Origin: Candidatus Omnitrophota bacterium
GTDB lineage: Bacteria > Omnitrophota > Gorgyraeia > Zapsychrales > JANLHA01
NCBI GenBank assembly: GCA_023247795.1
Contig: JAHFFT010000003.1
Location: 12,769-76,768 of the forward strand
Reading direction: 5' to 3'
DNA: 64,000 nt
The position numbers were made by a program, and so were the translations under genes. Below the pieces are notes generated by a model. That model was not told the DNA's origin, did no database searches, and saw only the letters and a program-made list of their open reading frames with translations. How positions within the stretch are numbered: position 1 is the first letter of the stretch; each line of letters begins with the position of its first letter. Positions 12,741 to 61,180 of this stretch are shown here, piece after piece.

Positions 12741-13892
12741 ATGAAACGCAATTTGTTATTGACGCCCGGACCAACCCAGGTTCCGGCGAGGGTCTGCGAG
12801 GCGTTGAGCCGTCCGATCATCCATCACCGAACTCCACAGTTCCAGGTTTTTTTAAAAGAAGCGATCGAGGGTTTGAAAGAAATCTATCAAACCAAAAACG
12901 ATGTCTATATCTTGGCCTCCTCGGGAACCGGGGCCATGGAGGCCAGTGTTTGTTCTTTATTGTCTCCTGGTGACAAGGTGATGATTGTTGAAGGCGGAAA
13001 ATTCGGTGAACGCTGGACAGAGATCTGCCAGGCTTATGGGATCCAAACGCAAGTCATCAAGGCTGAGTGGGGGAAGGTCGTTGATCCGAAAATGGTTGAG
13101 GCGGCGCTCAAAAAAGATAAAACGATCAAGGCGGTTTTTACCACTTTGGCGGAGACATCGACGGGTGTGACATTTGACATCAAAAGTTTGGGGAAGGTGG
13201 TCAAGGAAACTCCCGCGGTTTTGGTCGTTGACGCGGTCAGTGGATTAGGTGTTGAAGACTTGAAGACCGATGCTTGGGGTGTTGATGTTGTGGCATCAGC
13301 TTCACATAAGGGGTTGATGTTGCCACCGGGGCTAGGATTTGTTTCCTTGAGTGCAAAGGCCAAAGCCTTGATGGTCCATTCCAAATGTCCAAAGTATTAT
13401 TTTGATTTGCGAGCTTATGAGAAAGCCCTTGCAAGCGTTGACACTCCTTACACGCCGGCGATTGGTTTGGTCGTGGCGTTGCTTGAGAGCCTGAAGATGA
13501 TTAAGGAAGCGGGGCTGGATAACCGATTCGCTCATTACCGGCGGCTGGCACAGGCCACCCGTAAGGGTGCTTTGGGGCTGGGGTTGAAACTTTACGCGGA
13601 TGAATCTTGCGCCTCCAATGTTTTGACGTCCATTTGCGTCCCGAAAGGGATCGACGGAGAAAAGCTGGTCAAGATCATGCGCGATCAACATGGTGTCAGC
13701 ATTGCCGGCGGTCAGGCCGAACTTAAGGGCAAGGTCATTCGGATCGCGCATATGGGCTGTCTTGACGAATACGATCTTTTAACCGGGATCGCTTGTTTGG
13801 AAAAAGTATTGCGAGAGCTCGGGTACCGATTTGAACTGGGCGCCGGCGTTGCTAGCGCGCAGAAATTTTTAAATGGGGGACTGTCCCTTTAG
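12741..13892 (+). CDS. class V aminotransferase (serine-pyruvate / archaeal-type phosphoserine aminotransferase family)
   Basis: 383 aa. PLP-dependent fold with the SASHKGLMLPPGLG lysine motif. Sits immediately upstream of serA, which suggests a phosphoserine aminotransferase role. Confidence 0.75.
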   Translation: MKRNLLLTPGPTQVPARVCEALSRPIIHHRTPQFQVFLKEAIEGLKEIYQTKNDVYILASSGTGAMEASVCSLLSPGDKVMIVEGGKFGERWTEICQAYGIQTQVIKAEWGKVVDPKMVEAALKKDKTIKAVFTTLAETSTGVTFDIKSLGKVVKETPAVLVVDAVSGLGVEDLKTDAWGVDVVASASHKGLMLPPGLGFVSLSAKAKALMVHSKCPKYYFDLRAYEKALASVDTPYTPAIGLVVALLESLKMIKEAGLDNRFAHYRRLAQATRKGALGLGLKLYADESCASNVLTSICVPKGIDGEKLVKIMRDQHGVSIAGGQAELKGKVIRIAHMGCLDEYDLLTGIACLEKVLRELGYRFELGAGVASAQKFLNGGLSL

Positions 13893-49983: not shown

Positions 49984-51249
49984 ATGTTAGAAAAACTTGT
50001 CATTGAAGGTCAGCATCCTCTCAAAGGAACGGTTGAAATCAGCGGGTCAAAAAACGCGGTGTTGCCGATTCTGGCGGCCACCTTATTGACCGAGGGAACA
50101 TGCATCATCGAAAACGTTCCCCGTCTGCGCGATACCTTAACCATGATCGCTTTGCTGCGTTCACTGGGGAAGGACGTTGACTTCACGAAAAATACCGTTA
50201 CCGTCGGTGGGAACAAACCGTTAAAGCACATTGCCGAGTATAAATTGGTTTCGACGATGCGCGGTTCTTTTTGTGTCTTAGGGCCGCTTTTGGCAAAATT
50301 GAAAAAGGCCAAGGTCTCGCTGCCGGGCGGTTGCGTGATTGGCGTCCGTCCCGTCGACTTACATTTGAAGGGGCTCAAAACACTGGGCGTCAAATTCGAG
50401 ATTGATGGCGGGTATGTGATCGGTCATGCCCCGCGGATGAAGGGGAGTCAGATTTATTTAGGCGGGGTCTTTGGCTCATCGGTTTTAGCGACGGCCAATC
50501 TGATGATGGCCGCGACCTTGATCAAAGGAGAAACCGTGATTGATTCTGCCGCGTGCGAGCCAGAGATTTATGATCTTGGATGTTTTTTGAGTAAGATGGG
50601 GGCGCAAATAACTGGCTACGGGACGCCACGGATCGTTATCCAGGGGGTGAAGGAACTTAAGGGTGCTCATTATCGCATTGGTCCGGATCGGGTGGAAGCG
50701 GGGACGTATATTTTGCTGGCGGCCGCGACAAAAAGTTCGATCACTTTAAAAAATGCTGATTGTTCGCAGTTGGTCGCGTTGAAGGATAAATTGGAAGAGC
50801 ATGGTGTGGAACTTCAGTGTGACGCGCAAACCATTGTTGTCAAACCGAAATTTTTAAGACGTCCGACGAGCATCACCACCTATCCTTACCCAGGATTTCC
50901 TACTGATTTGCAAGCACAGTTTATGGCCCTGATGGCAAATACACCGGGAGTCAGTGTGATCACTGATAAAGTTTTTCCCGATCGGTTCATCCACATTGCC
51001 GAGTTGAACCGTATGGGCGCGCAAATCCGCCGAGAAGGAAGCATCGCGGTCGTCGAGGGGGTCCGGGTTTTGCATGGGGCTCCGGTCATGGCCTCGGATC
51101 TGCGGGCCTCAGCCGCTTTAGTGATTGCCGGACTGGCGGCAAAAGGTAAAACCGAGATCCATCGTGTCTATCATTTGGAGCGCGGCTATGAAGGGATTGA
51201 ACATAAATTGCAAAAGATCGGGGCCAAAATCAATCGGGTCAAGGAATGA
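49984..51249 (+). CDS. murA: UDP-N-acetylglucosamine 1-carboxyvinyltransferase
   Basis: 421 aa. ..GSKNAVLPILAA..L.. N-terminus. Catalytic Cys-region loop (..LPGGCVIGVRPVDLH..). EPSP-synthase-like fold. Confidence 0.92.
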   Translation: MLEKLVIEGQHPLKGTVEISGSKNAVLPILAATLLTEGTCIIENVPRLRDTLTMIALLRSLGKDVDFTKNTVTVGGNKPLKHIAEYKLVSTMRGSFCVLGPLLAKLKKAKVSLPGGCVIGVRPVDLHLKGLKTLGVKFEIDGGYVIGHAPRMKGSQIYLGGVFGSSVLATANLMMAATLIKGETVIDSAACEPEIYDLGCFLSKMGAQITGYGTPRIVIQGVKELKGAHYRIGPDRVEAGTYILLAAATKSSITLKNADCSQLVALKDKLEEHGVELQCDAQTIVVKPKFLRRPTSITTYPYPGFPTDLQAQFMALMANTPGVSVITDKVFPDRFIHIAELNRMGAQIRREGSIAVVEGVRVLHGAPVMASDLRASAALVIAGLAAKGKTEIHRVYHLERGYEGIEHKLQKIGAKINRVKE

Positions 51250-51255
51250 CCCCGG

Positions 51256-51276
51256 TTCTGACCTGCGAGGTCAGAA
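51256..51276 (+). other. perfect 8-bp stem / 5-nt loop hairpin (TTCTGACC-tgcga-GGTCAGAA) in the 44-nt murA-trpG spacer
   Basis: Read directly. There is no canonical U-tract after it (gttgggttcaataattt), so the terminator call is uncertain. Confidence 0.35.
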
Positions 51277-51293
51277 GTTGGGTTCAATAATTT

Positions 51294-51866
51294 ATGTTGT
51301 TGATCATCGATAACTATGATTCTTTCACCTATAACCTGGTTCAATATTTTGGTGAGCTCAAAGCAGACCTTAAGGTCTTTCGCAACGACGCGATCTCTTT
51401 GCGAAAAATCAAACAGCTCAAGCCAAAGCAGATTGTCATCTCTCCTGGACCTGGCCGACCGGAAGACGCCGGCATTTCCGTCGATCTGATCAAAACCTTT
51501 GCCGGAACAATCCCCATTTTAGGTGTTTGCCTTGGTCATCAAGCGTTGGGTTATGCTTATGGCGGAAAGATCGTCGCTGCCAAGCGCTTAATGCATGGGA
51601 AGACCTCGTCGATCCAGCATAATGGAAAAGAAATTTTTCAATCCATTGAAAATCCCTTTGATGCCACACGTTACCACTCCTTGGTGATCGAAAAGCGCAG
51701 TCTGCCAAAATGTCTGGAAGTCACGGCCGTCACCAAAGACGCGTACCGTGAAATCATGGCGGTTCGCCATAAGACCCTGCCGCTGTGGGGTGTCCAGTTT
51801 CATCCAGAATCGATCCTTACTCAGGTTGGAAAGAAAATTCTAAAAAATTTTTTACAGATTTCATGA
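51294..51866 (+). CDS. trpG: anthranilate synthase component II (class I glutamine amidotransferase). Could also serve as PabA
   Basis: 190 aa. ..[10 protein letters not shown].. (catalytic Cys) and ..QFHPES.. (His). Sits directly upstream of trpD-C-F. Confidence 0.85.
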
Positions 51867-52873
51867 GACAATTCATTGAAAAGGTCCGGAACAAAGAAAA
51901 TTTAACGCATGCCGAGATGGAAGCGGTTATGCGTCTGATCGTTGATGGTAAGGCCGCGAATCAAGAAATCGCGGATTTTTTATTGGCCCTCAACGCTAAA
52001 GGCCCGACGGTGGAAGAGATCACCGGTGCCGCGAAGTCTTTGCGTTCCTTTGCCATCCCGGTGCCGACGAAGCATAGAGTTGTTCTTGATACCTGTGGGA
52101 CCGGAGGGGATCGCAAAGACACTTTCAATATTTCTACTGTCGCGGCATTGGTTGTTGCCGGGGCCGGTGTTGTTGTCGCCAAACACGGGAATCGTTCCAT
52201 CACCAGCCGTTGCGGGAGTGCCTGCATTTTGGAAGCTTTGGGAGTGAATCTCAACGTCGAAGAAAAGCGTTTGGGAACATGCCTGGATGAGATTGGGATT
52301 GCTTTCCTTTTCGCTCAGCGACTGCATCCGGCGATGAAACGGGTGGCTGTGGTGCGTAAAGAATTGGGTGTGCAGACCCTTTTCAATTTGTTGGGTCCGC
52401 TGCTCAACCCCGCCCGAGCGACCCATCAGATGATGGGGGTGAACCATCGGGATTTGGTCGAGCCCATGGCGCAGGTGTTAAAGAATTTAGGGTTGAAGCG
52501 GGGCTTGGTTGTGCATGGCAGCGATGGGCTTGATGAAATCACCACCACCGCAAAAAGTTTTGTCAGTGAATTTGCGGATGGACAGGTGCGGTCTTACACG
52601 ATTGAGCCACGGGAAGTGGGTATTCCTTTAGCTAAGGAAAATGATTTGAAGGGCGGCGGTTTGCCGGAAAATAGGAAGATTTTCAAAGCGATTTTGCAAG
52701 GTCAGCCTGGTCCCAAACGCGATATCGTGGTTCTCAATTCCGCCTATGCGTTTTATACCGCCGAGCGGGTCAAAGATATTAAAGAGGGGATCGCCTTAGC
52801 TGAGCAATCCATTGATTCTGGTAACGCTCAAAAGAAACTGGACGCTTTGATTTCTTATACTCAACAGAGTTAA
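51863..52873 (+). CDS. trpD: anthranilate phosphoribosyltransferase
   Basis: The ATG at 51863 (MRQFIEKV..) overlaps the trpG stop (ATGA). ..[17 protein letters not shown].. and ..VAKHGNRS.. motifs. About 336 aa. The track ORF starts upstream at 51785. Confidence 0.9.
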
Positions 52874-52896
52874 GACGGTTTGCAGAGGGCTAATTT

Positions 52897-53700
52897 ATGT
52901 CGTCGGATTTTTTAAAAGAAGTCGTTCAGTATAAAAAAAAGCTTAACAAAAAGAAAGAGGCCTTTTACGAAGGCTTAAAGAGAAACACGACGAAGACCAA
53001 GCTCACCCGTTATCGTCTTTTTAGAGAAGCGATCTCCAAACCCCGTCGGATCAATCTCATTGCGGAAATCAAAAAAGCCTCACCATCACAGGGGCTGATC
53101 TGTAAAAAATTTGACGCGCTTAAAATTGCCGACACTTACGTTGAGAATAAGTGCGACGCCATTTCAGTCTTGACCGAGGACAAGTTTTTCTTGGGGAGTT
53201 TTCGCTATTTGAGGCAGGTCACGGACCAATTTGCCGTTCCGGTTTTAACCAAAGATTTTATTATCGAGGAAGGGCAGGTTTATGAGGCCTTTTGTTTCGG
53301 CGCAAGTGCCATTTTGTTGATTGTGGCGATCTTGAGCGATGAGCAACTCACAACGCTCATGCAAATCGCCGCTCGACTTGATCTTGATTGTCTGGTTGAA
53401 GTCCACGATGAAAAGGAATTGGACCGGGCCTTGCATGCCAAGGCTGATATCATCGGGATCAACCACCGCAATTTGCGCACGTTGGATGTGGATTTGAATG
53501 TCAGCGAAAAGCTCATTCCGCGGATACCGTCGGGAAAGATCATTGTCGCGGAAAGCGGGATCAAGAGCCATCAAGATGTCCTCCGATTAAAGGAGCTGGG
53601 CGCCCATGCTGTTTTGATTGGGGAAAGTTTTTTACGAGCAGATGATGTGGGTGCCCGGTTAAGAGAAATTATGTATGGCGACACGGATAAGCGGCCATGA
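52897..53700 (+). CDS. trpC: indole-3-glycerol phosphate synthase
   Basis: 267 aa. ..IAEIKKASPS.G.I.., ..ISVLTE..FF.GS.., ..GINHRNL.T.. motifs. Confidence 0.9.
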   Translation: MSSDFLKEVVQYKKKLNKKKEAFYEGLKRNTTKTKLTRYRLFREAISKPRRINLIAEIKKASPSQGLICKKFDALKIADTYVENKCDAISVLTEDKFFLGSFRYLRQVTDQFAVPVLTKDFIIEEGQVYEAFCFGASAILLIVAILSDEQLTTLMQIAARLDLDCLVEVHDEKELDRALHAKADIIGINHRNLRTLDVDLNVSEKLIPRIPSGKIIVAESGIKSHQDVLRLKELGAHAVLIGESFLRADDVGARLREIMYGDTDKRP

Positions 53701-54308
53701 CCAGAGTCAAGATTTGCGGGATCACCAATATTGAGGATGCCTTGCTGGCAAGCGATCTGGGGGCCTGGGCGCTGGGATTCATTTTTTACAAAAAAAGTCC
53801 GCGCTACGTTGGGTCCAAAAAAGTCAAAGCGATCATTAAGCAATTGCCGCCTTTTGTTACTCCGGTCGGGGTTTTTGTCAACGAAAAAGCAGATGTTGTT
53901 AACAAAACAGCGGATTTTTGCGGACTGAAGGTGTTGCAGTTTCATGGGGAAGAGAGTCCGGCGTATTGTCGTTCATTCAAAGCCTATCGAGTGATCAAGG
54001 CCTTTCGGGTTAAGGGTACGTTTGATTTGAAGGTCCTGAAGCCCTATCAGGTTTCTGCGTATCTGTTTGACACCTATCAGCATGATCAATATGGTGGAAC
54101 TGGCCAGTCTTTTGATTGGCAGTTGATAAAATCGGTCAAGAAGACCGGCATTCCAATGATTCTTTCTGGCGGCCTTCATATTGGCAATTTGGGGGAGGCA
54201 ATTAAAGCAGCTCAACCCTATGCGGTTGATATCTCAAGCGGGGTAGAGTCCTCTCCAGGCAAAAAAAGCGAATCAAAATTGAGGCAGTTATTTAAGAATG
54301 TTCTTTAA
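53697..54308 (+). CDS. trpF: phosphoribosylanthranilate isomerase
   Basis: 203 aa. MTRVKICGIT N-terminus and ..LSGGL...N..EA.. C-terminal motif. ATGA overlap with trpC. Confidence 0.88.
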   Translation: MTRVKICGITNIEDALLASDLGAWALGFIFYKKSPRYVGSKKVKAIIKQLPPFVTPVGVFVNEKADVVNKTADFCGLKVLQFHGEESPAYCRSFKAYRVIKAFRVKGTFDLKVLKPYQVSAYLFDTYQHDQYGGTGQSFDWQLIKSVKKTGIPMILSGGLHIGNLGEAIKAAQPYAVDISSGVESSPGKKSESKLRQLFKNVL

Positions 54309-54323
54309 GAAAAGCATTGCGCC

Positions 54324-55673
54324 ATGAGAGAATCCGAAACAATCGAATTCAAGAAATCCACCACCGAGGTTAAGGCGGGGGTTACTTCTATTGTGGCAAT
54401 GCTCAATAAGCATGGCCGGGGAGAGGTGTATTTTGGTATCAATGATGACGGTAAGGTTTTAGGGCAGACCCTCGGGCGGACAACGATCAAGGATATAACG
54501 CAGGCGGTGGTGGATAATACGGAGCCGAAGGTTTATCCAAAGGTGGAGGCGCGGCAGATTGAGGGTAGAGAATGTATTGTTGTGGAGGCCCATGGGAGCG
54601 ATAGTCCATATTTTGCTTATGGCCGGACATACATCCGCGTTGGGGATTCGGACAAAGCCATGAGTCCGCAGGAAATTGAAACACGCATACTCAACAGGAA
54701 GAAACTGCTTTGGGAAAAAGAAATATCTGAAAAGACCTTTGCCGATGTCAATGAGGATACGGTCAAGGAATTTATGCGTAAAGCTAAGGCGGCCAAGCGC
54801 ATTGATTTTGATTTCGTCGATGTTAAAACCACGTTAAAAAAGCTTCATCTACTGCATAAGAATCAATTGACCAATGCGGCTGAGGTTTTTTTTTGTGATG
54901 AAAATTCAATGGAAGTCCAAGCGGCAATTTTTGCTGGGACGGACAAGCTGACTTTTTTGGATATTAAGTCTTTTAAGGGAAATCTTTTTAGCTTACGTCA
55001 GCAGGCGGAGATTTATGTTGAAAGTAATATGAAATGGCGTGCGGATTTAAGTGAAAGCCGTCGCAAAGAAATTCCAGAAATTCCCGTGCGGGCTCTTGCG
55101 GAGGCAATCGGGAATTCGTTGTGCCACAGGGATTTTACTAATCCTAAGGGTAATGAAGTGGCCATTTATAAAGATCGGATTGATATTTATAACCCGGGCT
55201 TATTCCCGGAAGGGATCAATCCAGAGGATTTTTTTAGCGGTGAAGAACAATCAATTTTACGAAATCCTTTGATCGCGGAAACGATGTTTAAGTCTAAAGA
55301 TATTGAAAAATGGGGAAGCGGCATTAAGCGCATTCATGATGAATGTGTGGCCGCTGGCGTTAGGGTTGTCTTTAATAGGCGCAAAACGGGTTTTGTGGTT
55401 TCTTTTTATCGGCCTAAGTGGGAAGATGGGGAAGGTTTAGGTGAGGATGGCCCAAAAACTATCAAGAAAACTATCGAGAAAACTATCAAGAAAAATAGTC
55501 AGAAAATTTTAGATTTGGTACGTCAAAATCCAAAGATTACGGCGGAAGAATTGGCTAAAGCAACAGGGTTAAGCAGTGTCGGCGTTAGGTACAATTTAAA
55601 TAAGTTGAAAAAAGAAAATGTGCTAAAAAGGGTCGGCCCCGACAAAGGTGGTCATTGGGAGGTTGTTGGGTAG
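54324..55673 (+). CDS. AlbA_2 (Schlafen-like divergent AAA) + HATPase_c_4 + C-terminal winged-HTH protein (the family often annotated as 'RecG C-terminal domain-like transcriptional regulator'). Inserted between trpF and trpB
   Basis: 449 aa. N-terminal ESETIEFKKS...GGEVYFGINDDGKVLG (AlbA_2 signature). Central ..ALAEAIGNSLCHRDFTNPKGNEVAIYKDRIDIYNPGLFPEGI.. (HATPase_c_4 signature). C-terminal ..ILDLVRQNPKITAEELAKATGLSSVGVRYNLNKLKKENVLKRVG.. (wHTH). Contains an in-frame 3 x 12-nt tandem repeat at 55455..55490. Confidence 0.75.
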   Translation: MRESETIEFKKSTTEVKAGVTSIVAMLNKHGRGEVYFGINDDGKVLGQTLGRTTIKDITQAVVDNTEPKVYPKVEARQIEGRECIVVEAHGSDSPYFAYGRTYIRVGDSDKAMSPQEIETRILNRKKLLWEKEISEKTFADVNEDTVKEFMRKAKAAKRIDFDFVDVKTTLKKLHLLHKNQLTNAAEVFFCDENSMEVQAAIFAGTDKLTFLDIKSFKGNLFSLRQQAEIYVESNMKWRADLSESRRKEIPEIPVRALAEAIGNSLCHRDFTNPKGNEVAIYKDRIDIYNPGLFPEGINPEDFFSGEEQSILRNPLIAETMFKSKDIEKWGSGIKRIHDECVAAGVRVVFNRRKTGFVVSFYRPKWEDGEGLGEDGPKTIKKTIEKTIKKNSQKILDLVRQNPKITAEELAKATGLSSVGVRYNLNKLKKENVLKRVGPDKGGHWEVVG

Positions 55674-55869
55674 TTGCGAGAGATTATTTATAGATGATAC
55701 TATGGTCGCGGGGTTTAAAATTTTTTAACATATTTTTCAACCTTATTTTGAGCAAATGATATTTTAAAATATTTGTAAAATATTGTAATTAAACAACTTA
55801 CATTTTTAGTAAAAATTTAAAATACTGCTTTTACGGGTTGTCATCTCAAAAACAATGTGCTATGCTTAA

Positions 55870-56066
55870 AGAGCCGATAAAGGCAAACCCGGGGAAACCC
55901 GGGGACGCAAAACTACAGACCTACGTTATCTGAAAACCGGAAAGGCCCTTTAAGGCAACTGTGGCGCCTTTGGGCATAGTAGACTTGAACGGTGTAAGTA
56001 GGATGATATGGTGGCTGTGTTGCCGAAGTGCTGGGGAACTGATATGACCCCCACTTTATCGGCCTT
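55870..56066 (+). promoter_or_regulatory. candidate c-di-GMP-I (GEMM) riboswitch upstream of the secreted-protein gene. The 5' half at 55882..55913 matches the aptamer core GGCAAACC-[4-bp stem + GAAA tetraloop]-GGGACGCAAA(A)C. The element is bracketed by a 10-bp inverted repeat (GCCGATAAAG / CTTTATCGGC) and followed by a U-rich tract
   Basis: aGGCAAACC-CGGG-GAAA-CCCG-GGGACGCAAAAC compares with the V. cholerae Vc2 sequence GGCAAACC-AUUC-GAAA-GAGU-GGGACGCAAAGC as recalled from memory. A downstream GUUGCCGAA (56018..56026) resembles the conserved 3' GGUUACCGA region. The second hairpin could not be assigned by eye. Confidence 0.4.
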
Positions 56067-56084
56067 CTTAATTTTTTCCCCAAT

Positions 56085-56837
56085 TTGAAAATGAACAAAT
56101 TAGCGACCTGTTTTTATCTTATTCTGCTGGCATTCTGTTTTTTTGCCTCACCGGTATTTTCACAAGAACAAAATCTTGAACAAAACAATCAGGCCAATCT
56201 TGATGAGCCAACGGCCCAACCCATTGAATTTAACAGTGCAAAATTTGGGGTCACACTGACTTTTCCGACTGGGTGGGTGGTTGAGCCGCAGGAAGATAAA
56301 AGAGCAGCAAAGGCCGAAGAAGTTCAGGGTGTCTATTCTCGAGAGAACTTAACCGATCGGACCAAAGGTCTGTTGGGCCAGCCACTTTTTCCTGGCGGCG
56401 AGGAAGAGCAAGCCATCGATCAATTGGTGGGCGATTTAACCAATGCCTCGGTATCAGCGGTACCGATCGTCTCTGCTTATCACAACGATCCGCAGCAGAT
56501 TGAAATCGCAGAGCGTCCGCATATCTATCTTCGGGTGAAACCCATTAGCAGCAACGATCCCTTTGCTGAAGAAAGGAGTGCCTGGCAGCTCAGCGTCAAA
56601 TTTGCTAAAGGAACATTTGTGGTTCCCCCAAATGAGTTTAACCATAAGGGTATCGACGCTATCGGGACCATTTACAATTATCAATCCCTGTCCTCCGGTG
56701 TCGAGATCACCCAAGAAGATTACGCGTTTCGCCATGGACAGGAATTGCTGACCCTTTCTTTAATTGCCCCATCATCAGAAGTCGAAAGTCTTCGAATGGA
56801 TTTTGACTCTGTTCTCGACAGCCTTGTTTTAAGATAA
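56085..56837 (+). CDS. hypothetical secreted protein (signal peptide)
   Basis: 250 aa. N-terminal MKMNKLATCFYLILLAFCFFASPVFSQ signal peptide. No recognisable domain. Sits downstream of the riboswitch-like element. Confidence 0.55.
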   Translation: MKMNKLATCFYLILLAFCFFASPVFSQEQNLEQNNQANLDEPTAQPIEFNSAKFGVTLTFPTGWVVEPQEDKRAAKAEEVQGVYSRENLTDRTKGLLGQPLFPGGEEEQAIDQLVGDLTNASVSAVPIVSAYHNDPQQIEIAERPHIYLRVKPISSNDPFAEERSAWQLSVKFAKGTFVVPPNEFNHKGIDAIGTIYNYQSLSSGVEITQEDYAFRHGQELLTLSLIAPSSEVESLRMDFDSVLDSLVLR

Positions 56838-56906
56838 TTCTTAAGAAGGCAATAATCCGCCATCCTTTCTTGAGATAACTTTTGAAAATCCTTTCCAAAG
56901 ATTCAA

Positions 56907-56918
56907 TTGTGGTATAAT
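56907..56918 (+). promoter_or_regulatory. extended -10 promoter element (TGgTATAAT) 9 nt upstream of the ATG at 56928, implying a near-leaderless transcript for the Zn-ribbon/M20/DUF3108/trpBA unit
   Basis: caattgTGgTATAATatcggtttcATG. A weak -35-like TTTCCA lies 15 nt upstream. Confidence 0.4.
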
Positions 56919-56927
56919 ATCGGTTTC

Positions 56928-57230
56928 ATGGTCAACAAATTCATTCGTGTTTATCAGGAAATTGATATTCAGGATGTCAAGACGCACAGCCTCATTTTTG
57001 GCGATCTCTCCGGAAATTGTTCCCAATGCAAGGCCATCAGCATCAAGCTTTCCGCTAGCCAGTGTCCCGAATGTCAAACGACTTTTAAGTACATTGCTTT
57101 TCGAAACATGAAGAGCCACCAGGCCAAGGTCCATAAAATCAAAGCGGAACGTCCCAGCCTGATTTTGATTGATTATGACGATTATAAGATTGCGACCAGC
57201 ATTTCGAAGGCCGAGGAGTTGTTTGGATGA
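56928..57230 (+). CDS. hypothetical small zinc-ribbon protein (two CxxC pairs)
   Basis: About 100 aa from ATG 56928 (MVNKFIRVYQEIDIQ...). CSQC...(12 aa)...CPEC. The stop overlaps the start of the M20 peptidase gene (ATGA). The track ORF starts at an upstream TTG inside the promoter. Confidence 0.5.
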   Translation: MVNKFIRVYQEIDIQDVKTHSLIFGDLSGNCSQCKAISIKLSASQCPECQTTFKYIAFRNMKSHQAKVHKIKAERPSLILIDYDDYKIATSISKAEELFG

Positions 57231-58378
57231 AAAAAGAAGATAAAAGGGTCATTCAGCTCTTACAAAAAATCGTTCGCTATAATTCGGAAAATCCCCCAGG
57301 GAATGAATGGGAGCTGGCAAAATTCATTGAGCATGACCTGCGTTCGTTAGGGCTGGAAGTTAAGATTTATACCTATGCCAAGGCCAGGCCGAACATCGTT
57401 GCCACTTTGAAAGGAATTTTACCCAGGCAGCAAGCCAAGAGCGGGGCACTGCTGTTAACCCCGCATTTTGATACCGTGCCGATTGGAAAGGGGTGGAAGC
57501 AGGACCCGCTCGGCGGAAAAATCATTGGCAATAAAATTTATGGACGGGGAACGTCCGATGATAAGGTCAACGTCGCGGTGGCAATGGAAGTGATGCGGCG
57601 GCTCGTTGAGAAACGGGTCCGGCTGAAAAAGGACGTTATCATGGCCGCGACCGTTGATGAAGAGACCGGCAGTCAATACGGCATCATTCCACTTCTTGAG
57701 AAAGGGATCTTAAAACCCAAGGCCGCGTTGATTTTGGATGCCAATGAATTTGACGCGACCGTCGCGCAAAAAGGGCTTTTTCATACGCGGATCCAAATTT
57801 TTGGCAAACAGGCGCATGGGGCTTATAACTGGCGGGGTGTCAACGCGATTGAGATTGCGGCACGCGTGATTGAGAAGATCAAAAAACATCAATTTACTTT
57901 TAAGCGTCATCCCTTGTTGCGTCCTCCGACGATGAATATCGGGACCATCCACGGCGGGGACAAAGTCAATATGGTGGCGGGTTTTTGTGAATTCTCGCTG
58001 GATAACCGTTTTATGCCGGGCATGACCGGCGCCGAGGTTTTGAAAGTCATTAAAAAAATTATTCGCAGTGAAACCAAAAGATTTCAAGTGATCATCAGCG
58101 ATAGCCAGAAACCTTATGAGATTTCCGCGGAACATCCCTTTGTTAAGACGTATTTAGCGACCGCAAAAAGGATGAAAATCAAGTCAACCCTTTGCGGCAG
58201 CGAAGGGGCAACGGTCATGACATTCTTTCAGGAATTTAAGATCCCGGCATTTGCAACCGGTTTTGGCGCGCATGGAACGGCCCATACCGTCGATGAATAC
58301 GCTAAGGTCGATCTTTTGGTCAAGGGCGCTCAGTTTTTGGAAAGGGTTGTAAGGGATTTTGATGAGGTTGGCTCATGA
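57227..58378 (+). CDS. M20-family metallopeptidase (ArgE/DapE/acetylornithine deacetylase - succinyl-diaminopimelate desuccinylase-like)
   Basis: 383 aa. ..LLTPHFDTVP.G..W..DP.., ..YGRGTSDDK.. (metal-binding Asp), dimerisation-domain insert, C-terminal ..HT.DEY.. Confidence 0.75.
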   Translation: MKKEDKRVIQLLQKIVRYNSENPPGNEWELAKFIEHDLRSLGLEVKIYTYAKARPNIVATLKGILPRQQAKSGALLLTPHFDTVPIGKGWKQDPLGGKIIGNKIYGRGTSDDKVNVAVAMEVMRRLVEKRVRLKKDVIMAATVDEETGSQYGIIPLLEKGILKPKAALILDANEFDATVAQKGLFHTRIQIFGKQAHGAYNWRGVNAIEIAARVIEKIKKHQFTFKRHPLLRPPTMNIGTIHGGDKVNMVAGFCEFSLDNRFMPGMTGAEVLKVIKKIIRSETKRFQVIISDSQKPYEISAEHPFVKTYLATAKRMKIKSTLCGSEGATVMTFFQEFKIPAFATGFGAHGTAHTVDEYAKVDLLVKGAQFLERVVRDFDEVGS

Positions 58379-59103
58379 AAATTTGGACCGGAACGGCTCT
58401 GGGTTGTCTTCTGGTGATTTGGGCTCCGGGCCAACTGCCGCTGGCACTGAGGGCGGCCGGCCAGAGCCAGGCCGTGGCGGTCGTTGCCGTCGGTGAGAAA
58501 GTAACGTACTCTATCAAGCAGTTAGGGATCACGTCAGGAACCGCGACCCTGGTTTATCAAGGCCAGGCGCCGGGAGAAGCCGCGGATGTTCATCTCATTG
58601 TCTTCACTGCGGATGGCATGAATTTTTATGATCAGGAAAAAATCTATTTTCACCACCAGTCTTTTCTTCCGATGAGGGTCGAGCGGGACATCAATATTTT
58701 CGGCAAGAAAGAAAAGATCATCGAATATTACGAGCCTGATCAGGAACGGATTCGGATTGTCAAGACCATCGGTAAAGCGACCGAGGAACAGATCATTAAA
58801 AAAGCAGGGCCGATTGACAATATTTATTGCTTCATTTATCGCTATCGGCAAAACGGCCAGTTTGCCTTGAATGAAGCGTTGAACTTGCGTCTGCCCACAC
58901 AGGATGTCGCGATGAGCATTGTTGATCAACCAAAGCTTAAGGTCGCCGGAGAGTTGTATGATGCGTTTTATCTGCAAAGCCATCCGGAAAAATATCATAT
59001 CTGGTTTGACGGGAGCGAGAAGAAAATTCCTTTGCGGATCGACGGCGCGATTGGTTTTGGTAAGACCGCGATGATCATGAGCAAATACGAAAACCCGAGT
59101 TAA
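58375..59103 (+). CDS. hypothetical exported protein, tentatively DUF3108-like
   Basis: 242 aa. N-terminal signal-like hydrophobic segment. Beta-rich composition. Family assignment is from overall resemblance only. ATGA overlap with the M20 gene, and trpB starts 3 nt after its stop. Confidence 0.45.
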
Positions 59104-59105
59104 AA

Positions 59106-60293
59106 ATGAAAACATTCCCTGATAAACACGGACATTTCGGTGAATTTGGCGGACAGTTTGTCCCCGAGACCTTGATGTCGTGTCTGGCTGATCTTAAAAA
59201 GGCTTTTGCGACTTTGCGTAAACAAAAAGCGTTTCAACAGGAGCTCGCGCATTATTTGAACGATTATGCCGGAAGGCCGACCAAGCTGTATTTTGCCGAG
59301 CGGCTGAGCCAAAAGTTTAAAAATTTGAAAATTTATTTAAAGCGGGAAGACCTTCTGCATACGGGTGCGCATAAGATCAATAATACCTTGGGGCAGATTT
59401 TATTGGCCAAACACATGGGCAAGACCCGCATCATTGCCGAGACCGGTGCTGGTCAGCATGGGGTCGCGACCGCGACCGTGTCAGCGCTTTTTGGCCTCAA
59501 GTGTCAGATTTATATGGGACAGCAGGACATGGAACGTCAGGCGCTGAATGTTTTTCGCATGCAGTTGTTGGGGGCAACGGTTGTCCCGGTGACCAGCGGT
59601 TCGCAAACGCTCAAGGACGCGATGAATGAAGCGATCCGTGATTGGGTGACGAATGTCCGAGACACGTTTTACATCATCGGTTCGGTTGCCGGCCCGCATC
59701 CCTATCCTTTGATCGTCCGGGAGTTTCAGTCGATCATTGGGCGGGAGGCGAGGATGCAGTTTTTGTTGAAGGAGAAGAAATTGCCGGATTATCTCGTCGC
59801 CTGTGTTGGTGGAGGGAGCAATGCCATGGGATTGTTTCATGCGTTTTATCAAGATCACCGGGTTCAGATGATTGGAGTTGAGGCAGCTGGCCGCGGGGTC
59901 AACACCGACCATCATTCGGCAACGTTGTCGAGCGGAAGCATCGGCGTTCTGCATGGAAGTAAAAGCGAACTTTTACAAACCAAAGACGGACAGATTCGGA
60001 TCGCCCATTCGATTGCCGCGGGGTTGGATTATCCCGGAGTGGGGCCAGAACACGCGTATTATAAAAAAATCGGGCGCGCTCGGTATGAGTCGGTCACTGA
60101 TCAAGAGGCGTTGTCTGGGCTGAAACTTTTATCGGAAACCGAAGGGATCATTCCAGCACTGGAAAGCTCGCACGCGATTTTTTATTTAACGAAAATGAAC
60201 CGGCAGGTCAAGAAAAAGTCTTCGGTGATTGTCTGTTTATCCGGACGCGGGGATAAGGACATGCACACGGTGCGCGAGAAATTATTAAAATGA
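59106..60293 (+). CDS. trpB: tryptophan synthase beta chain
   Basis: 395 aa. ..[13 protein letters not shown].. (PLP lysine) and ..GGGSNA.G.F.. motifs. Confidence 0.92.
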
Positions 60294-60320
60294 AAAATCG
60301 TATTCAACAAAAATTTCCCA

Positions 60321-60359
60321 CACTCCCAGGGTTCAACCCCCGGGGCAACCCCGGGAGTG
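60321..60359 (+). repeat. 39-nt palindromic element (CACTCCCAGGG-TTCAA-CCCCCGGGGCAACCCCGGGAGTG) lying between two near-identical copies of the trpA 5' end
   Basis: The outer arms CACTCCC / GGGAGTG and the inner CCCGGGG / CCCCGGG are self-complementary. It is flanked by atgaaaaatcgtattcaacaaaaattt (60290) and atgatcaatcggatcaagcagaaattt (60371), which are about 22/27 identical. Related to aaacccggggaaacccgggg at 55886. Confidence 0.5.
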
Positions 60360-60370
60360 AAGAGGATGTC

Positions 60371-61180
60371 ATGATCAATCGGATCAAGCAGAAATTTGTA
60401 GAATTGAAAAAATGGCAGAAGAAGGCGTTCATTGCTTATATCGCCGCCGGCGATCCCAACCTCGGGACCACGGTAGAGCTGGTTAAGGCCTTTGATCAAG
60501 CCGGGGTGGATATTGTTGAGCTGGGTGTTCCTTTTTCTGATCCGTTGGCCGACGGAACAACGATTCAGATGGCGTCGCAACGGGCGCTCAAGCAAGGAGT
60601 GACGATCAACAAAATTTTACAAATCGTTCAGCGAATCCGCCAAACCAGCCAGATTCCTATTGCTTTAATGACCTATTACAATCCAATTTTTCATTATGGA
60701 TTAGCCGCCTTTTTGAAGAAGGCCCGGCAGGCCGGTGTCGATGGAGTGATCGTGCCTGACCTTCCTCCAGAAGAAGGGCAGGACTTGATCAGAGAAGCAA
60801 AAAAATTTGATTTAGCGACGGTATTTTTTATTTCCCCAACGACCCAGGTCCATCGAATGGCCCGGATCGCCAAGGCCAGCACCGGATTTGTATATTATGT
60901 TTCCGTGACCGGCATCACCGGCGCGCGCCAAATTCTCCCAAAAGAGCTCATCGAGAATATCAAAAAAGCCAAACGCTTGACGGATAAACCGATTTGCGTT
61001 GGTTTCGGGGTTTCAACCCCTGAACAGGTCAAGCAATTGTCGCAAGCGGCCGACGGTGTCATTGTTGGAAGTGCAATCATTAAGCAGATTGAGAAACATC
61101 GCGGTAAGAAGGATTTGATCAAATCGGTTTCGCGTTTTGTTCAAGAGCTAGCCAAGCCTTTAAGAACACATGAAAGATAA
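60371..61180 (+). CDS. trpA: tryptophan synthase alpha chain
   Basis: The ATG at 60371 gives MINRIKQKFVELKKWQKKAFIAYIAAGDP, which aligns with TrpA N-termini. An in-frame upstream ATG at 60290 (overlapping the trpB stop) would add 27 aa spanning the palindromic element. About 269 aa from 60371. Confidence 0.85.
   Translation: MINRIKQKFVELKKWQKKAFIAYIAAGDPNLGTTVELVKAFDQAGVDIVELGVPFSDPLADGTTIQMASQRALKQGVTINKILQIVQRIRQTSQIPIALMTYYNPIFHYGLAAFLKKARQAGVDGVIVPDLPPEEGQDLIREAKKFDLATVFFISPTTQVHRMARIAKASTGFVYYVSVTGITGARQILPKELIENIKKAKRLTDKPICVGFGVSTPEQVKQLSQAADGVIVGSAIIKQIEKHRGKKDLIKSVSRFVQELAKPLRTHER

Follow-up and report, generated by a model that had tools for sequence, protein, structure and literature searches.

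A canonical c-di-GMP-I riboswitch in a split trp cluster of a Candidatus Omnitrophota bacterium and a conserved long-range helix that may link it to transcription termination

In a Candidatus Omnitrophota bacterium (GenBank assembly GCA_023247795.1, contig JAHFFT010000003.1) the trp genes are split, with trpF upstream and trpB and trpA downstream of a non-coding leader that precedes the gene of a secreted 248-aa protein. The question raised by this locus is what kind of RNA the leader encodes and what it may control from such a position. We analysed it within a stretch of 64,000 nt (positions 12,769 to 76,768 of the contig), referred to here as the window. A preliminary description had placed the leader inside an interrupted trp operon, as is indeed seen, and had read it tentatively as a + strand riboswitch of the c-di-GMP-I (GEMM) class, whose ligand is cyclic dimeric guanosine monophosphate (c-di-GMP). 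The central call was borne out by a covariance-model match. When the window was scanned with cmscan and Rfam 15, the sole match above a gathering score in the 64 kb was found at 55873-56028 on the + strand, spanning the full length of the model RF03167 (c-di-GMP-I-GGC, clan CL00126) with 59.9 bits and an E-value of 1.3e-11. The same element gave an E-value of 1e-13 when a 501-nt sub-window was scanned, and other families were not close. The limit that the preliminary description had set for such a match was 0.01. The c-di-GMP-II model (RF01786) had no match in 55700-56200 on either strand, even at E-values up to 10.

As the downstream 248-aa protein has no close homologues, relatives of the element were collected by DNA-pattern scans. 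A genome scan for GEMM-I cores with a long second arm (P2) yielded 120 loci, and a metagenome scan tuned to the proximal P2 helix of the window (P2a) yielded 20 more; the fetched loci of these scans carry L-numbers. About 27 distinct leaders have the 5' sequence (A/G)GCCGAUAA(A/G)GGCAAACC together with a window-type P2a. These leaders, referred to here as the GCCGAU subfamily, come from metagenome-assembled genomes (MAGs) labelled Candidatus Omnitrophota or 'uncultured Planctomycetales/Planctomycetia'.

Whether the element belongs to the GGC variant class named by its top-scoring model, maybe with another ligand preference, turns on a single nucleotide. The meaning of 'GGC' was derived by setting two Rfam consensus lines side by side: those of RF03167 (...GGGACGCGAAgC..., ACGCGAAgC) and of the c-di-GMP-I model RF01051 (...GGGACGCAAAgC..., ACGCAAAgC) differ at the position of A47 in the Vibrio cholerae Vc2 riboswitch. 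RF03167 has all helices and most conserved blocks in common with the window element and is its best-scoring model, although 59.9 bits is barely over the cut-off of 59 bits. At the Vc2 A47 position, however, the model has G (ACGCGAA), whereas the window has A55909, the canonical A47, in ACGCAAAAC (within the block GGGACGCAAAAC), and the cmscan alignment is mismatched at that column. None of the 140 fetched loci yielded a core with G47. In twenty related leaders, which all carry A47, the best model was either RF01051 (62-75 bits) or RF03167 (59-68 bits), and because A47 leaders split in this way the 'GGC' label appears as a scoring artefact in this lineage. A second model of the clan also beat its own gathering score on 55873-56028 and was masked by the clan filter; this was presumably RF01051, since its cut-off is 35 bits. 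We regard membership of the GGC class as most improbable. The model alignments and the related leaders confirm the element at 55873-56028, as far as sequence comparison can, as a canonical c-di-GMP-I (GEMM-I) aptamer, a new example within a known class. The call itself is routine annotation, as this copy of a well-known class is picked up by an Rfam scan. A pitfall of assignment is that canonical A47 aptamers of this lineage often go to the 'GGC variant' model by score alone. The c-AMP-GMP (3',3'-cGAMP) riboswitch, GEMM-Ib, shares fold and clan with the window element; position 20, reportedly A in GEMM-Ib, is G (G55882) in the window.

The aptamer carries AGGCAAACC-CGGG-GAAA-CCCG-GGGACGCAAAAC at 55881-55913 and GUUGCCGAA at 56019-56027. 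All blocks quoted in the preliminary description were found in the window, and the conserved ones are retained in related leaders. As in Vc2 and RF01051, GGCAAAC and GGGACGCAAA flank a first hairpin with a GNRA cap, here GAAA (55882-55911), and a second hairpin bears a tetraloop receptor; G20, A47 and C92, the interhelical C-G pair, the 3' UGCCGAA and the short P1 are likewise matched. The c-di-GMP contacts in Vc2 are G20, A47 and C92, and the interhelical C-G pair is universally conserved (PMC4744006). Via the model alignments, all of the ligand-contact bases are present in the window, as G55882, A55909 and C56023, respectively. The interhelical C44-G83 pair corresponds to C55906-G56014, with both bases invariant in 21 relatives, as are the C-G and G-C core pairs of the true P1, which is short. 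The second hairpin and its receptor, left unplaced by the preliminary description, are now assigned as P2a, P2b, CCUACG/UAUGG and a tip insert of ~71 nt (Table 1). The 11-nt tetraloop receptor has the sequence CCUAAG/UAUGG, and the CCUACG/UAUGG of the window is of this type. A doubt had been attached to the palindrome CCCGGGG; this 7-mer occurs eight times in the window, and the copy near 60339 lies within the trpA coding sequence and is irrelevant.

Covariation in the relatives supports the same fold. With the insert removed, pairing in the canonical GEMM-I structure reached 94.6% over 21 relatives, and 11 pairs in P1a, P2a and P2b showed compensatory changes, a signal that comes from the free columns because the search patterns fixed many columns of the core. 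None of 500 column shuffles matched the 94.6% pairing, and slid controls were all below 46%. The window differs from Vc2 and RF01051 at the tip of P2, where the ~71-nt insert stands in place of a loop of ~4 nt. L096 likewise has an insert at the P2b tip, of 63 nt. The insert varies in length and sequence between clades; the closest eight relatives share a GCCC/GGGC hairpin in it and, in partly conserved form, the 5' motif AACCGRGAAGGCC. MAFFT and RNAalifold on the ~70-nt insert of the eight close relatives recovered no conserved fold beyond the one 4-bp GCCC/GGGC helix; single-sequence folds of the inserts were also examined. A K-turn was considered for the GAAGG motif and rejected by eye, as the tandem G-A positions are not kept in relatives. 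A long P2 tip is not peculiar to the window element, as such tips were also found in Anaerolineae, Chthonomonadales, Endomicrobia and others.

The ends of the aptamer take part in a second pairing. A perfect 10-bp inverted repeat is formed by GCCGATAAAG at 55873-55882 and CTTTATCGGC at 56054-56063. The preliminary description had recognised this repeat and the U-rich tract that follows it, with each arm one base off (55872 and 56055), and had interpreted it as the P1 helix. The repeat proved to be real, perfect and conserved; its interpretation as P1 did not stand. Because the long-range helix occupies the 5' strand of P1, J1/2 and G20, it is not P1 and cannot coexist with the ligand-binding fold. 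By itself the repeat is modestly unlikely, as an anchored run of at least 10 pairs, with G-U allowed, arose in 83 of 5000 shuffled versions of the downstream 230 nt; its reality is settled by its conservation in relatives. Complementarity between the 5' and 3' elements was present in 23 of 25 distinct scorable relatives as an anchored run of at least 7 (7-15 bp), located 9-129 nt past the aptamer. Scoring was by anchored contiguous run, and a G-U-tolerant 20-position score was discarded for its spurious T-rich matches. Among 144 distinct GEMM-I cores, a perfect complement of the 5' strand of at least 9 nt was found in 20 from this subfamily only, plus two chance-like matches; the background in GEMM-I cores is 5-7 nt.

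The long-range helix also shows compensatory change. Its ends shift and covary between relatives, with AGAG/CUCU in L023, L129 and L130, GGAG/CUCC in L088 and UAAG/CUUU in L079, L092, L121 and L140, and L013 and L137 have a helix that reaches into GGGCAA. Both-sided change was seen in 4 of 16 helix column pairs, and two column pairs hold most of the compensatory changes (G-C 7, A-U 6 and G-U 3 in one, A-U 14 and G-C 3 in the other). The core GCCGA/UCGGC is constant because the aptamer constrains the 5' strand. A 5'-end helix of this design with compensatory changes was found in ~20 related leaders labelled Omnitrophota or Planctomycetes and in no other sampled lineage. For 55871-56080 of the window, the long-range helix is the minimum free energy structure at -70.7 kcal/mol, compared to -63.5 kcal/mol for a local alternative (56022-26 with 56059-63) and -52.3 kcal/mol for the state with the aptamer P1, ligand energy left out. 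The 3' element prefers the 5' strand over the 3' strand of P1 in each of 24 leaders, with means of -20.8 and -13.1 kcal/mol, respectively.

Directly downstream of the helix is the U-rich tract CUUCUUAAUUUUUU, and a T-rich tail stands immediately 3' of the helix in 16 relatives. The helix and the tract would together constitute a putative split intrinsic terminator. The proposed coupling of the element to a termination decision is retained as a predicted function. Upstream, a promoter-like site with an extended -10 element suggests a transcript start at ~55871-55873, which would be the first bases of the 5' strand. Nearly all relatives have a -10-like box (TGnTATAnT; TGGCATGGT in one clade) whose end lies 6-9 nt upstream of GCCGAU, and because of this fixed distance the RNA probably begins with the 5' strand of the helix. 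For the TGGCATGG boxes of a Planctomycetes-like clade, a sigma-54 promoter was rejected by eye, the GG-to-GC spacing being wrong. The spacer upstream of the promoter (55720-55840) has a GC content of 18% compared to 47% for the window. A small hairpin of unrelated sequence was seen by eye in the region between aptamer and 3' element in most relatives.

The computed class membership and structure, and the conservation and covariation of both folds, lead us to infer a transcription start, termination at the U-tract, an ON direction and an operon extent as follows. Transcription would start at the element's own extended -10 promoter, with the 5' strand as the first part of the RNA to appear and P1a and P2 folding next. 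Binding of c-di-GMP during transcription of the 27-nt spacer would lock P1, J1/2 and C92; the 3' element would then be partnerless, and transcription would read through into the genes for the secreted protein, the Zn-ribbon protein, the ArgE/DapE-family deacylase, the DUF3108 protein, trpB and trpA. Without ligand, the 3' element would pair with the free 5' strand, the helix would close round the P1a, P2 and spacer hairpins, and transcription would stop at ~56070-56077. The identical GCCGA of the P1 3' strand could offer the 3' element a weaker back-up pairing. Such an arrangement would resemble transcriptional ON riboswitches, such as the pbuE adenine riboswitch and ON-type c-di-GMP leaders, in that the bound aptamer sequesters one strand of the terminator. 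It would differ from them in sequestering the 5'-most strand of the aptamer and in a stem that encloses the ~170-nt aptamer plus spacer hairpin, not a compact local hairpin. The platform geometry would be unusual in that the putative terminator stem has the entire aptamer inside it. Unlike RF01051 riboswitches such as Vc2, the window has a switching sequence that pairs with the aptamer 5' strand, at what would be the very 5' end of the RNA; in several other fetched lineages (e.g. L005, L024, L033, L061; by eye) the 5' half of the terminator is the 3' side of the aptamer.

We consider a c-di-GMP ON switch, in which the ligand-locked aptamer blocks the split terminator and transcription proceeds, to be the probable reading of the locus, and several observations weigh against it. 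The aptamer has a U55914-U56018 mismatch in P2a where 20 relatives pair normally (U-A, C-G, U-G or G-C), and this probably contributes to the low rank of the window by score, its 59.9 bits being the second lowest among the scored subfamily members (L088 has 59.3). The search patterns prescribed much of the core sequence in the relatives, leaving covariation informative in the unfixed columns only. In the window itself, the advantage of the 5' strand as partner of the 3' element is small (-18.0 vs -16.3 kcal/mol), the U-tract CUUCUUAAUUUUUU is interrupted, and the helix 55873-82/56054-63 encloses 171 nt, unlike a standard hairpin. A standard terminator scan made no call on the + strand, the split terminator included, because its loop limit is 3-8 nt. 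About eight relatives, mostly from other clades, have the helix without an adjacent T-run, so the helix is not a terminator stem everywhere; in such relatives (L131, L123/L126/L133, L017, L138) a separate hairpin and T-run lie ~20-30 nt further on, as seen by eye and clear in L131 and L123/L126/L133.

The stability order of the folds bears on the opposite direction of control, an OFF switch in which the outer long-range helix is, or extends, P1 in the bound state and c-di-GMP causes termination. The preliminary description took the helix as P1, and in L023, L130, L129 and L088 it is limited to (A/G)GAGCCGAU(AA), leaving AAAG and G20 free, so that the pocket could coexist with it in principle. 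In the window and most relatives, however, the helix takes A18-G20, and often G21-C22-A23, which must be free or otherwise paired in the aptamer; the CCGA of the canonical P1 after C92 is invariant; and without ligand the long-range helix is the most stable fold by 18 kcal/mol, so the ligand can only compete with it. We consider an OFF switch unlikely. The position of the element raises another explanation, namely that there is no ligand-controlled decision and that the helix and U-tract finish a stable, end-paired RNA of ~205 nt, with other promoters driving the downstream genes; this RNA might bind c-di-GMP as a standalone molecule or might serve to terminate the upstream murA-trpGDCF unit. 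Such an RNA would account for an element that stays after trpF while the adjacent downstream gene changes, for helix strands that lie at the two extreme ends of the predicted short transcript, and for a helix without an adjacent T-run in some relatives. It is distinctly unlikely nonetheless, as the helix covers exactly the ligand-binding nucleotides, which is the signature of a switching sequence, and same-strand downstream genes begin 14 nt past the U-tract in the window, without a convincing promoter of their own. The P2a U-U mismatch and the second-lowest score in the subfamily could also mark a decaying or non-functional copy, and a U-tract that ends 13 nt before the ATG, with no Shine-Dalgarno sequence, might point to translational rather than transcriptional control. 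Against both, the bases of the ligand and tertiary contacts, the promoter box, the perfect 10-bp helix and the U-tract are all intact, and the start codon is unsequestered in every predicted fold; we hold either of them to be highly unlikely. The ON switch in the window is kept apart here from a wider claim that would extend to relatives. That the GCCGAU subfamily has a distinct expression platform, in which a 5'-end strand and a distant 3' element serve as the terminator and gate the distal trp cluster by c-di-GMP, is possible but doubtful. The ~20 leaders with an aptamer-enclosing 5'-end helix offer a natural test case for co-transcriptional, kinetically controlled long-range switching. Once freed, the 3' element of L131 (GCGCCUUU) might act as an antiterminator by pairing with AAAGCGC, the 5' half of the separate terminator. 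Antitermination of the L131 type may be another possible wiring of the same switching helix.

Table 1. Positions of the riboswitch, its alternative pairings and the neighbouring genes in the window
Feature	Position	Strand	Basis or remark
AlbA_2 (Schlafen-like), HATPase_c_4 and winged-helix gene	54324-55673		15 nt after trpF, before the riboswitch
Promoter-like site TTGTCA-17-TGcTATGCT (extended -10)	55838-55866	+	9/12 matches, TG present
c-di-GMP-I (GEMM-I) aptamer	55873-56028	+	full-length model match; covariation in relatives
5' switching strand GCCGAUAAAG	55873-55882	+	contains P1 5' strand (C55874, C55875, G55876), J1/2 and G20 (G55882); Rfam alignment
P1	C55875-G56025, G55876-C56024, plus C55874-G56028 and G55873-U56029 across the A56026-A56027 bulge	+	model alignment
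Junction pairs	G55883-C55908, C55884-G55907	+	
P1a hairpin CCCGGG-GAAA-CCCGGG	55888-93/55898-903	+	4/6 pairs covary among relatives
GAAA tetraloop	55894-97	+	caps P1a; P1a flanked by GGCAAA and GGGACGCAAA
P2a (P2 = P1b arm, 55911-56021)	55911-21/56010-21	+	model alignment; 2 pairs covary
Tetraloop receptor	CCUACG 55920-25 with UAUGG 56007-11	+	fits RF01051 consensus CUAAg...uAuGa
P2b	55925-30/56002-07	+	5/6 pairs covary
Distal insert, ~71 nt, in place of the usual ~4-nt P2 tip loop	55931-56001	+	model alignments
C92 and P1 3' strand	56022-56029	+	C56023; C56024, G56025, A56026-A56027 bulge, G56028, U56029
Spacer hairpin UGGGG...CCCCA, between aptamer and 3' element	56032-56053	+	fold
3' switching element CUUUAUCGGC	56054-56063	+	perfect complement of 55873-55882
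U-rich tract CTTCTTAATTTTTT (= CUUCUUAAUUUUUU)	56064-56077	+	directly 3' of long-range helix; putative split intrinsic terminator
Secreted 248-aa protein gene, first downstream	56091-56837	+	PsbP/Mog1/DcrB-like fold
Zn-ribbon gene, 107 aa	56907-57230	+	
ArgE/DapE-family deacylase gene	57227-58378	+	
DUF3108-like gene	58375-59103	+	
trpB	59106-60293	+	
trpA	60290-61180	+	

The genes around the leader were identified with NCBIfam and Pfam. Upstream, murA, trpG, trpD, trpC and trpF (49984-54308) are followed by the AlbA_2/HATPase_c_4/HTH gene and then the leader. From the Zn-ribbon gene onward the intergenic gaps are -4, -4, 2, -4 and -11 nt; no terminator-like site was found on the + strand in 56700-58380, with one weak pattern match beyond, at 58388-58402. 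The genes at 56907-61180 would accordingly form one co-transcribed unit. The 248-aa protein retrieved only itself in a word-indexed protein search. It has seven remote homologues, and a hydrophobic, signal-peptide-like N-terminus was seen by inspection in seven full-length members of the family. Its AlphaFold model has a predicted local distance difference test (pLDDT) score of 82 and a PsbP/Mog1/DcrB/LpqN-like fold (Foldseek E ~1e-7). A scan of the window for motifs of c-di-GMP enzymes gave no GGDEF, one weak EAL-like string and one weak PilZ-like string, and was uninformative.

To see what surrounds the element elsewhere, tblastn was used to locate trp genes in the relatives. Ten loci (L051, L079, L092, L096, L109, L121, L123, L126, L127 and L140) have the riboswitch downstream of trpF, at a distance of 0.1-2.5 kb. 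The single full-length locus, L051, has the order trpD-trpC-trpF, riboswitch, Zn-ribbon, deacylase, DUF3108, trpB, trpA. In L092 and L127 the riboswitch is followed by the Zn-ribbon and deacylase genes, and in L096 and L121 by a large secreted protein, which in L096 has FG-GAP repeats. Judged from these gene orders, the conserved feature is the position of the riboswitch in the split trp cluster, and the 248-aa gene is an insertion found in this genome only, in the slot directly after the switch. The preliminary description had placed the riboswitch in front of a secreted-protein gene. That holds for the window, where the protein has a signal-peptide-like N-terminus; the link is particular to this genome, and relatives differ. 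Other genes downstream of subfamily members encode a cNMP-binding patatin protein, a PAS histidine kinase, response regulators, an M48 peptidase and an RlpA-like protein, which is the usual GEMM mix. The element is thus like the RF01051 class in being a 5' leader before a secreted-protein gene and, in the subfamily, before genes for signalling and surface proteins.

The slot between trpF and the riboswitch also varies in relatives. In L092, L096 and L140 it holds a protein of ~224 aa that starts M..V(I/V)FDIETVG and is DnaQ-type exonuclease-like by eye, in L127 a 785-aa secreted protein and in L109 a 216-aa secreted protein. This slot appears to be a hot spot for insertions. The Zn-ribbon protein of ~107 aa has two CxxC pairs and a weak match to Zn_ribbon_5, and belongs to no NCBIfam family. 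Its gene is always followed by an ArgE/DapE-family M20 deacylase gene with overlapping stop and start (in the window; L051, 3072-4546; L092, 2798-4257; L127, 7-1195), and in three relatives the riboswitch stands immediately 5' of the two genes. Together they appear to make up a functional unit that is conserved.

The conserved location of the riboswitch between trpF and trpB suggests that c-di-GMP may control the Zn-ribbon protein, the ArgE/DapE-like deacylase, the DUF3108 protein and possibly tryptophan synthase. If this is true, the element would be a c-di-GMP-gated internal attenuator in an Omnitrophota-like trp cluster, coupling the Zn-ribbon, deacylase, DUF3108 and trpBA genes to a second messenger in uncultured bacteria whose signalling is little known. 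In L137, a Planctomycetes-like locus, the leader lies ~300 nt upstream of ilvD and ilvB homologues (996-2648 and 3-920; N-terminal sequence by eye). L137 may be a further case of a switch beside amino-acid biosynthesis genes.

Other GEMM-I architectures were met in the fetched loci. In some, the P2 tip is a long, near-perfect hairpin built of short tandem repeats (e.g. CCAATG/CATTGG, CAGTRATCAGT), with several copies per genome: L014, L048, L077 and L082 (one Chthonomonadales MAG), L106, L108 and L059; L011, L039, L056 and L094 (Anaerolineae); and L047 and L095. In L022, L114, L085 and L065 (Endomicrobia/Elusimicrobia), GCAAAGCC and the part of P2 with the receptor are apparently separated by one or two additional hairpins, an insertion site unlike that of the window. 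L130 contains two GEMM-I aptamers (216-358 and 520-605), 160 nt apart, each with its own -10-like box and terminator, and a response-regulator gene lies downstream of both. The first of these aptamers uses the 5'-end helix, and the second, with a GGUAAACC core and the standard length of 86 nt, has an ordinary local terminator.

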